A DNA stretch of 64,000 bases from Saccostrea echinata (taxonomy: Eukaryota): NCBI RefSeq assembly GCF_033153115.1, contig NW_026889762.1, positions 5,788,496 to 5,852,495 on the forward strand. The letters run 5' to 3'. Within the stretch, counting starts at the first letter, position 1, and the number at the start of each line of letters is the position of its first letter. The translations under genes were made by a program, and so were the position numbers. A model generated the notes under the pieces. That model ran no database searches, was not told where the DNA came from, and saw only the letters and a list, made by a program, of their open reading frames with translations. Below are positions 47,606 through 48,496 of this stretch, one piece after another.

Positions 47606-47719
47606 AAATTTCAAAGGAATGATGTCTGGGAAATTCAACAAATTATGAAAGAAAACATTGAAAACGTACTAGAGAGGGGTGAAAAACTAGACAGTTTAAT
47701 TGAGAAATCAGAACTTATG
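47606..47719 (+). CDS. Exon encoding an R-SNARE coiled-coil-like motif: KFQRNDVWEIQQIMKENIENVLERGEKLDSLIEKSELM
   Basis: Only frame 0 is open between acceptor ttatatttccAG (47604-05) and donor ATG|GTTAGT (47720). ENIENVLERGEKLDSLIEKSELM closely matches the Ykt6/Sec22/VAMP7 SNARE motif (for example human Ykt6 NTMESLLERGEKLDDLVSKSEVL), including the zero-layer Arg. Phase-compatible with exon 30, but could belong to a separate gene. Confidence 0.45.
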
Positions 47720-47924
47720 GTTAGTTGATTGCATGTTTTATATGCATGTTTATTTTCTATTTGACTGTGTCTGTAAATGTAAATATGAATTTGCTGTTGT
47801 TGGGTAACACTGCATTCTTCCGAATGCACAATATTGTTGACAATGCAGAAAAATGTCCGTATATTTGATATGAAAGATTCAAAATAGTTGTTGTATTTGG
47901 ACTAATGATGAGTTATTTTTTAAG

Positions 47925-48093
47925 GAGGCATCACCAGTCGTGATGGACATGGGTTCACTTTTGATGAAGGCGGGATTTGCTGGAGACCACGCCCCCCGAG
48001 CAGAATTTGAGACAACTGTTGGACGTCCCCGACATCAGGGCGTGATGGTTGGCATGGGACAGAAAGATTCATATGTTGGAAAAGAGGTTACAG
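47925..48093 (+). CDS. Exon encoding an actin N-terminus-like segment: [56 protein letters not shown](G)
   Basis: Collinear with actin residues 4-58 ([57 protein letters not shown]), yet too divergent for a bona fide actin. Acceptor tttttaAG at 47923-24; donor ACAG|GTTAGG at 48094; phase 0 to 1; in frame with the preceding exon. Confidence 0.45.
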
Positions 48094-48433
48094 GTTAGGA
48101 ATTTTGTAACTTTAATAAAAAACCCTTTCTTGTATCAGTACATGTAATGGGAATTGAATTTAAGTTATCACTTCAGACTATTTTTATCAAAGCTTTTCTT
48201 ACTTTTAAGTGTGATGTTCTACTTTCTATTGTTTATTTATCTTTCAAGTTCTTAAATAGTTCTTATTTGAGTTGAAATTTTTGCATAATATTAAAAAATA
48301 ATGATTTTTACCATAATGTCTTAGGAATTCCAAAATCACCAGATTATTAGGACAAATGTACTCATGATATTATTTGCTTGATAAAGAATTCAATACATTA
48401 AATACAAAAAATGAAAAAAAGTTTTTTTTATAG

Positions 48434-48496
48434 GAACAAAACCTGTTGTAGGAAGAGTTTTGGAAGAGTATTCTTCAAAACATATATTTATGGAAG
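48434..48496 (+). CDS. Short exon (G)TKPVVGRVLEEYSSKHIFME, unassigned
   Basis: Acceptor ttttttatAG at 48432-33; donor GAAG|GTAATG at 48497. Phase 1 in and phase 1 out, the only open frame; no similarity recognised. Confidence 0.35.

Follow-up and report, generated by a model that had tools for sequence, protein, structure and literature searches.

The 64,000-nucleotide stretch of DNA analysed here (the window) comes from the oyster Saccostrea echinata (contig NW_026889762.1) and holds the N-terminal two-thirds of a PARP4-like gene, followed on the same strand by a series of short exons, one of which resembles an R-SNARE helix and another the N terminus of actin. The window is AT-rich (~32% G+C), with short exons and long introns, and its orthologous blocks are 75-91% identical at the nucleotide level with the related oyster Saccostrea cucullata, in which the corresponding locus is denoted L010. 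The features that concern the two exons are the following, in window coordinates:

15932..33879, + strand: N-terminal two-thirds of the PARP4-like gene, with BRCT, PARP catalytic, VIT and vWA exons (Pfam on single exon open reading frames)
34238..34333, + strand: last exon clearly homologous to PARP4, DEVIPEDAPDIWDLLENEDVDQLKYLSWEGEE, phase 0-0, AG/GT sites
39110..39199, + strand: acidic mini-exon 1, EEEGEGEEEEEECEEEGRKKSHHLTAEEED, phase 0-0, AG/GT, in frame; syntenic with S. cucullata L010 3017-3419
40225..40281, + strand: acidic mini-exon 2, EEEYEDAYKAFQIVEPDCM, phase 0-0, AG/GT; S. cucullata counterpart EVYEEAYEAFECAEP, L010 4817-4861
44483..44533, + strand: acidic mini-exon 3, EEGMDIEEDDDVYMDSV, phase 0-0, AG/GT; the exon 30 of an earlier reading made from the sequence alone (the sequence-only reading)
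47606..47719, + strand: R-SNARE-like exon, 38 amino acids, phase 0-0; spans layers -6 to +4 with the zero-layer Arg (Pfam Synaptobrevin)
47925..48093, + strand: actin-N-terminus-like exon, actin residues ~4-60, exact D-loop, phase 0 to 1 (Pfam Actin)
48434..48496, + strand: short exon (G)TKPVVGRVLEEYSSKHIFME, phase 1-1, not terminal, AG/GT

The upstream gene shows the PARP4 domain order on one strand, with BRCT at 16.4 kb, PARP at 22.5-23.7 kb, VIT at 26.3-27.1 kb and vWA at 30.1-31.0 kb. Single exon open reading frames scored 27.4 bits for BRCT_2, 27.3 and 35.0 bits for PARP and 91.4 bits for VIT, and the vWA exons reached 19-25 bits, under the Pfam cut-off. Between 32.4 and 33.9 kb, the translation is 51-71% identical with annotated mollusc PARP4 models. 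The homology extends into the exon at 34238-34333, in which NEDVDQLKYLSW matches ESVDFLSYMQY of the Tegillarca and ENVDILPYMSW of the Bulinus PARP4 models, and also EDVDFLPYMSW of human PARP4. This exon, reading NEDVDQLKYLSWEGEE, opens the in-frame chain that leads to the SNARE-like and actin-like exons.

The exon at 47606-47719 translates as KFQRNDVWEIQQIMKENIENVLERGEKLDSLIEKSELM in a single open frame, the two other frames being full of stops. It is bordered by a polypyrimidine-AG acceptor and a GT donor, and its phase fits the acidic exon at 44483-44533. The profile search, which the sequence-only reading had named as a possible refutation of its SNARE assignment, supported that assignment: Synaptobrevin (PF00957) matched with 40.5 bits against a cut-off of 26.4 (E 2.4e-10) over profile positions 10-43 of 89. 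Among solved structures in the PDB, VAMP4 was the best match (E 9e-6), followed by Nyv1 and then by Ykt6, VAMP8, Sec22b and VAMP7. The proposed match to a Ykt6/Sec22/VAMP7 core thus holds for the R-SNARE heptads and the zero-layer Arg, but not for the subfamilies named, and it covers layers -6 to +4 only; the exon is a generic brevin-type R-SNARE piece. When aligned with VAMP4, Nyv1 and Ykt6, layers -6 to +4 are occupied by Q3, V7, I10, M14, N17, V21, R24, L28, L31, S35 and M38, numbered as in VAMP2, and the zero-layer Arg lies within LERGEKLD.

The complete 16-layer motif (-7 to +8) is not present, as the exon stops at layer +4 and the exon that follows begins with EASP, which puts a proline at layer +5. 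By tblastn, no exon for the C-terminal half of an R-SNARE was found in the 64-kb window, and human VAMP4, Ykt6, VAMP7 and Sec22b sequences used as queries gave the SNARE-like exon as the single match and no longin domain. An exon with the WW-juxtamembrane signature of a membrane anchor was found neither in the window nor in L010. The SNARE piece cannot be a working SNARE. AlphaFold predicted one helix for it, with a predicted local distance difference test score (pLDDT) of 74-78. Being 114 nucleotides long with phase 0-0, the exon can be included or skipped with the frame left intact.

Three other readings of these sequences were rejected. A nested complete VAMP, Ykt6 or actin gene does not fit the tblastn searches with human sequences, which returned single exons only, or the missing WW-juxtamembrane exon. 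The string KIQNSCCIW just 5' of the actin-like exon resembles the Ykt6 tail KQNSCCAIM; it is a chance likeness, as a stop precedes it and the corresponding S. cucullata stretch contains stops. Capture of the SNARE-like exon within a repeat or transposon is not borne out, since the surrounding 1.25 kb has no second copy in the window. Two fish VAMP8-like proteins that were among the best matches in a library of representative proteins, P0121 from Scomber scombrus and P0126 from Lepisosteus oculatus, contain, as annotated, 2-4 tandem half-SNARE exon units running from the N terminus to layer +4, which would show that such a unit shuffles naturally.

Synteny with the S. cucullata locus L010 extends over 35.4-48.5 kb of the window and takes in all three acidic exons; L010 has the SNARE-like exon at the same position as an open 33-amino-acid exon (~10918-11016, Synaptobrevin 35.1 bits) that forms part of the annotated model P0144. 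The two exons are 82% identical overall and 91% in the core, against ~50% for the introns on either side. Indels of 9 and 3 nucleotides are each in frame; the acceptor is shifted by 9 nucleotides with the frame kept, and the donor region is identical. Length and sequence of the N-terminal third vary between the two oysters, and none of the differences in the core falls on a layer residue. Constraint at the level of the exon is clear from this comparison, whereas constraint at the level of the protein is not proven. A second S. cucullata contig, L001, was uninformative on the SNARE-like exon because its homology ends at window position 47805, owing to a repeat and to the end of the contig. A word-indexed protein search with the exon returned no candidates and was likewise uninformative, as the index also missed P0144, and a scan of JGI metagenomes for orthologous SNARE exons yielded only true R-SNAREs of microbial eukaryotes, at up to 63% identity.

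The exon at 47925-48093 is also read in one open frame of 56 amino acids, with two other frames full of stops, a polypyrimidine-AG acceptor and a GT donor, and it too matches the phase of the acidic exon at 44483-44533. Actin (PF00022) matched with 38.9 bits against a cut-off of 27 (E 5.3e-10) at profile positions 4-51 of 410 only. Both single exons therefore exceed the Pfam gathering scores, and their resemblances are not due to chance. The translations, canonical + strand splice sites, phase match and actin collinearity given by the sequence-only reading were all reproduced, as was its judgement that this is no functional actin. A complete actin fold (~375 amino acids, four subdomains) is not encoded, as no other actin exon occurs in the 64-kb window and the flanking exons are unrelated, and the phosphate-1 loop DNGSG reads DMGSL; DMGSL or DAGSL replaces DNGSG throughout the bivalve family of this exon. 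The actin-like piece cannot be a working actin.

A database search found homologs of the actin-like exon in two S. cucullata models, in Mytilus galloprovincialis and M. coruscus models and in >30 unannotated bivalve contigs, and in the homologs found an acidic stretch always precedes the actin-like module. The conservation that had been proposed as a check is thus seen for this exon in oysters, mussels and other bivalves. Among 11 sequences, 34 positions are invariant, including 17 consecutive ones that correspond to the D-loop region of actin. The ratio of non-synonymous to synonymous substitution rates (dN/dS) is 0.05-0.08 against S. cucullata, at a synonymous divergence of ~0.55, and 0.02 against the bivalve locus L002. 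These values exclude a decaying pseudogene fragment and place the exon under strong purifying selection. AlphaFold predicted the actin-like piece to be unstructured, and the model, with a mean pLDDT of 57.6, was of too low confidence for a fold search. A single SNARE helix and an unfolded actin piece fit tethered peptides rather than folded domains.

The two exons belong to a longer series. Eleven successive AG/GT exons from 34238 to 58896 constitute one open frame of 310 amino acids: after 34238-34333 come the three acidic exons, the SNARE-like and the actin-like exon, the exon at 48434-48496, and then a module of acidic, ELPKKKA and proline-rich exons, first in degenerate and next in intact form. 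The exon at 48434-48496 had been taken as terminal, but it has a GT donor in phase 1, and its frame continues to conserved exons at 54.2, 54.3, 58.5, 58.8 and 62.3-62.6 kb. It is conserved as GAKPVLGKVLEK in S. cucullata and GSKPIVGKVLKE in L002. The counterpart of acidic mini-exon 3 is EEAMDVDELCEESV, in which the S. cucullata model P0144 starts. The exons downstream of 48434-48496, including two of a second module copy that are mutually in frame, are:

54159..54200, + strand: degenerate P-stalk-tail-like acidic exon, AEIEEEMSFCLPED, phase 1-1, AG/GT, in frame; aligns with the 62.3 kb copy
54316..54350, + strand: exon (V)ELPKKKAQQTE, phase 1-0, AG/GT; S. cucullata homologs ELPKKKASPKE / ELPKKQAPPKE
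58549..58696, + strand: proline-rich exon FQVRGSS...APPPPPPPPMESSESEPEGAYE, phase 0-1, AG/GT; found by tblastn with P0144 residues 246-302, E 7.6e-10
58831..58896, + strand: exon (K)PGPINPDYALERVIPTRMTKG, phase 1-1, AG/GT; S. cucullata counterpart KPDFLSINPDYALPPDVPLLRAGGDK
62328..62375, + strand: exon (E)SEEEDEDMCFGLFDA resembling the C-terminal tail of ribosomal P-stalk proteins, part of the second module copy, phase 1-1, AG/GT
62544..62578, + strand: exon (F)ELPMKKAPPRE, second module copy, phase 1-0, AG/GT, in frame with 62328-62375

Evolutionary rates across the tail exons are very uneven. Against L010, dN/dS is 0.08 for the actin-like exon, 0.35 for acidic mini-exon 2, ~0.55 for the SNARE core, 1.2 for 48434-48496 and 2.1 for the proline-rich exon. 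For the 62.3 kb exon ESEEEDEDMCFGLFD, the only matches in the PDB were the extreme C termini of P0, P1 and P2 (ESEESDEDMGFGLFD), with E values of 0.14-0.6 that stay below significance because the motif is short. Ribosomal_60s (PF00428) reached 16-18.8 bits, below its threshold of 28.1, over the last 15 profile positions only. We regard the P-stalk likeness as a resemblance at the level of the motif only. The peptide differs little from the C-terminal peptide that the ribosomal stalk proteins P0, P1 and P2 universally share; its degenerate copy lies 8 kb upstream, and similar motifs occur as EESDEEDVDMGFSLFDDDD in S. cucullata and EEDEDLEFGLFGD in the Tegillarca PARP4 model. An (ATGT)n microsatellite at 62376-62415 starts exactly at the donor of the P-stalk-like exon, and the reading phase there is kept by just one repeated GTATGT unit.

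In S. cucullata, the annotation makes P0144 a separate gene of 641 amino acids, a single model with both Synaptobrevin and Actin matches in Pfam, which joins SNARE-like, actin-like, P-stalk-like, proline-rich and WH2-like parts. The model begins at an internal Met of an acidic exon that has three further conserved acidic exons upstream. Its WH2-like motif RQSLLQSITTGQSLKKIPP (L010 45935-46171, P0144 residues 586-607) scores 21.5 bits, under the Pfam cut-off of 23.1, and a second, partial WH2-like motif (GRQDLLSSA) follows it. The next model downstream on the same strand contains an HSP70 fragment and a precomputed match to PF26156, the PARP4 MVP-interaction domain (MVP-ID). The HSP70 part consists of three exons at L010 54387-55211, just 5' of the MVP-ID exons, that encode a beta fragment of the substrate-binding domain (80.8 bits). 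Between the two models, an unannotated open exon of 331 amino acids (L010 49892-50884) carries FG-type and poly-proline (FH1-like) repeats. Our own Pfam and PDB sequence searches returned nothing for an MVP-ID in the C-terminal piece of this locus; the piece is collinear with the C terminus of human PARP4 in BLASTP (E 7e-6).

Related arrangements are found in other molluscs. In Mytilus edulis, 271 bp separate a model with PARP, VIT, vWA and EF-hand parts from a downstream model on the same strand, of 1579 amino acids, with Snf7, HSP70 and MVP-ID (precomputed PF26156). The first model stops just past GT dinucleotides that are possible splice donors; a GT-AG junction that keeps the frame into the next exon is available. 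The PARP4-tail DNA of this mussel (locus L091) also encodes a calmodulin-like domain, a fragment of a CHMP4-like Snf7 (ESCRT-III) protein comprising helices 1-3 (47.3 bits), and a complete C-terminal (Qc) SNARE motif of the SNAP-25 type in two phase-compatible exons (E 1.6e-11 to squid SNAP-25):

31251-32266, 37175-37285, 40329-40417 of L091: regions of the CHMP4-like fragment and the SNAP-25 motif

In the bivalve locus L008, calmodulin-like exons of the mussel type lie 1.4-2.2 kb 5' of the actin-like exon, and the Tegillarca PARP4 model runs from the vWA region straight into acidic exons and EEESDEEDEDLEFGLFGD. The parp4 model of Bulinus truncatus, P0143, ends in a ubiquitin-family domain (Pfam ubiquitin 40 bits) with the terminus LRGGGGK, which suggests that the capture of modules in the PARP4 tail reaches beyond bivalves.

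The SNARE-like and actin-like exons exist in the window, are in frame, and are conserved and syntenic, and an MVP-ID lies downstream in two other bivalves. We consider it probable (about 0.6) that they are coding mini-exons of one very long oyster PARP4, situated in an internal linker between the vWA region and the MVP-ID that was partly shuffled from unrelated proteins. Because the MVP-ID follows downstream on the same strand in S. cucullata and M. edulis, the exons most likely belong to this internal linker and not to the C terminus. A single transcript for the PARP catalytic, SNARE-like and actin-like exons is inferred from the unbroken in-frame chain, the PARP4 parts on both sides (in the window, S. 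cucullata and Mytilus) and the Tegillarca model. Among the three explanations offered by the sequence-only reading, a chimeric PARP4 is the best supported, with the amendment that the chimera would concern the linker and that the two exons are two modules among many. The complete SNAP-25 motif encoded in mussel PARP4-tail DNA lends comparative support to the remark of that reading that a vault PARP joined to a SNARE motif would be without precedent. A literature search on PARP4 in bivalves returned nothing relevant, and a bivalve PARP4 linker built as a mosaic of shuffled mini-exons is not known to have been described previously.

According to this reading, the linker between the vWA region and the vault-anchoring MVP-ID would correspond in position to the disordered exon 30 region of vertebrate PARP4. 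In bivalves it would consist of many short exons, several of which arrived by exon shuffling as copies of parts of unrelated, abundant proteins. The oyster modules of this kind would be a brevin-type R-SNARE motif reduced to its N-terminal two-thirds, the first ~60 residues of actin with the exact D-loop, the P-stalk-tail-like motif, WH2-like and poly-proline stretches, and the fragment of the HSP70 substrate-binding domain. They would presumably act as short interaction peptides on a flexible tether and not as a working SNARE or actin: the SNARE helix would bind Q-SNARE helices but lack the power to drive fusion, the actin piece would present its D-loop, and either could recruit partner proteins to PARP4 or the vault, where they would be ADP-ribosylated or sequestered.

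Several observations speak against a mosaic PARP4 linker. The exon joins are predictions, made by this analysis or by ab initio annotators, the MVP-ID does not lie inside the 64-kb window, and membrane-bound SNARE partners could hardly reach a linker in the vault lumen. In Saccostrea and Mytilus, the locus is annotated as two or three genes instead of one, with P0144 as one gene and HSP70 plus MVP-ID as another in the former and two genes in M. edulis. This division would suit a separate transcription unit, in which the acidic, SNARE-like, actin-like, proline-rich and WH2-like exons form a gene of their own beside or within PARP4, perhaps keeping the HSP70 and MVP-ID end after gene fission. 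Its product would be a proline-rich, WH2-bearing protein resembling actin regulators, or a vault-lumen protein without PARP activity, and the WH2-like motif, even below its cut-off, and the poly-proline stretches do resemble regulators of the WASP/WIP type. We nevertheless find a separate unit unlikely. The P0144 model starts inside an acidic exon, with conserved acidic exons upstream of it, and the 331-amino-acid open exon left out between the two Saccostrea models shows that the annotation is fragmentary. The first Mytilus model ends next to possible donors, the Tegillarca model links the vWA region directly to acidic and P-stalk-like exons, and an MVP-ID detached from PARP4 would be unparalleled. 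The separate small downstream gene that had been proposed is not supported in that form, as there is no small gene: the chain from 34238 to 58896 is in frame with PARP4, and what is annotated separately in S. cucullata is the 641-amino-acid P0144.

The remaining difficulties concern the SNARE-like exon. It is known from two oysters only and was not found in L002, L008 and L009; in L002, an acidic exon and not the SNARE-like exon stands directly 5' of the actin-like exon. An HMMER scan of 1.84 billion representatives contained no protein with this exon, the best matches being VAMP8-, brevin- and Ykt6-type SNAREs at up to 56% identity, and P0144 is the sole database protein that carries it above that value. 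Over 25 aligned core codons, the two oysters differ by 2 synonymous and 5 non-synonymous changes (dN/dS ~0.55), and the synonymous divergence (p ~0.05) is below that of the actin-like exon, which splicing signals could explain. All of this, together with the variable N-terminal third and a motif cut at layer +4 with no anchor, would agree with a genuine actin-like exon accompanied by an exonised or decoy VAMP fragment in an intron, rarely or never included in the transcript and either young or kept by splicing constraint. We consider this explanation quite unlikely, since the frame, both splice sites and the in-frame character of the indels were kept while the neighbouring exon reached a synonymous divergence of ~0.55, all surviving core-layer residues are unchanged, and the exon is far more conserved than the introns. 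Moreover, SNARE modules recur in this part of the gene, since mussels independently carry the whole SNAP-25 SNARE motif there. For the exonised pseudogene fragments suggested earlier, an origin by exon shuffling is probable, but the description does not fit the present state of the actin-like exon; for the SNARE-like exon, a dN/dS of ~0.55 on only 7 differences tells neither for nor against it. That the resemblances arose by chance, or from an artefact of assembly or annotation, is extremely improbable. Short exons in AT-rich introns can mimic motifs, as the chance 'QNSCC' string illustrates, but both exons score above the Pfam gathering values, an independent assembly has them at the orthologous position, and the actin-like exon is present in >30 independent contigs.

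A further possibility, which is speculative and which we rate as improbable, goes beyond the mosaic linker itself. SNAREs, the actin D-loop, the P-stalk tail, calmodulin, ubiquitin, HSP70 and CHMP4 are targets of pathogen toxins and proteases, and the linker might be an array of integrated decoys or tripwires showing those host peptides that such effectors target most. The tether from ADP-ribosyltransferase to vault anchor would then display SNARE peptides (R-type in oysters, SNAP-25 Qc-type in mussels) together with the D-loop, P-stalk tail, calmodulin, ubiquitin, HSP70 and CHMP4 peptides. An effector that bound or cleaved one of them would be captured and then ADP-ribosylated or sequestered, or else its attack would set PARP4 free from the vault and so raise an alarm.

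The introns of the locus contain several tandem repeats. A 166-bp satellite occupies 36005-38718 in a PARP4 intron (16.5 copies, 91% matches), with dispersed, partial relatives at 45497-45925, ~55.0-56.1 kb and 57.3-57.8 kb, and the same family occurs in S. cucullata (L001 1-260; L010 24.6-25.3 kb and 53.0-53.8 kb). In the intron 3' of exon 48434-48496, an 18/36-bp minisatellite (~15-26 copies) and a 179-bp tandem repeat (2.6 copies) are found at 49222-49756 and 50416-50884, and the 179-bp repeat recurs at L010 12750-13229.

If the mosaic reading is true, the PARP4 linker would no longer be a featureless spacer but a display of defined interaction peptides, each predicting a specific binding partner or pathogen effector. 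The locus would also show clearly how, in nature, exons were repeatedly shuffled into one region of a gene, with two kinds of SNARE motif gained independently in two bivalve lineages. If the decoy reading is true, the disordered part of PARP4 that is under positive selection would gain a concrete function, and vaults would gain one in immunity.

Vaults house no enzyme other than PARP4, and the role of the enzyme and of its disordered, positively selected linker is not understood (PMC4038475, PMC12280208). In human PARP4, long disordered regions bridge the folded domains and move freely in the vault lumen (PMC12280208), and in vertebrates the exon 30 region of the protein, hypervariable in both sequence and length, is under positive selection, with a dN/dS of 1.75 between human and rhesus (PMC4038475). 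The oyster gene resembles vertebrate PARP4 in the order BRCT, PARP, VIT, vWA, long variable linker and MVP-interaction domain, the last of these taken from other bivalves, and in a linker that is predicted to be flexible and evolves fast (dN/dS 1.2-2.1 for the exon at 48434-48496 and the proline-rich exon). Unlike the single large vertebrate exon, which has no recognisable homology, the bivalve linker consists of many mini-exons with several recognisable protein pieces, and at least one of them, the actin-like exon, is under strong purifying selection as judged by dN/dS. The oyster SNARE-like exon shares layers -6 to +4 and the zero-layer Arg with brevin-type R-SNAREs such as VAMP4, VAMP8 and Ykt6, but lacks layers +5 to +8, a transmembrane or lipid anchor and the longin domain, and it is embedded in a predicted PARP4 linker. 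Tomosyn and amisyn are soluble, anchorless regulators with an R-SNARE motif that can pair with Q-SNAREs without driving fusion; the oyster piece would likewise be an anchorless R-SNARE helix, whereas the motif of tomosyn and amisyn is full-length. The actin-like exon is collinear with actin residues ~4-60 and identical over 17 residues of the D-loop region, yet it amounts to ~15% of the actin fold, reads DMGSL for DNGSG and is predicted to be unstructured alone. In primate POTE-actin, an actin-derived sequence is similarly fused into another gene, but there the actin is complete, unlike in the oyster. Plant NLR integrated decoys and the protease 'tripwire' linkers of NLRP1 and CARD8 offer an analogy only: in both cases, fragments of host proteins would be inserted where a protein evolves rapidly, the protein itself belonging to a family with a suspected part in conflicts between host and pathogen, whereas PARP4 is not an NLR and an immune role of its linker is hypothetical.

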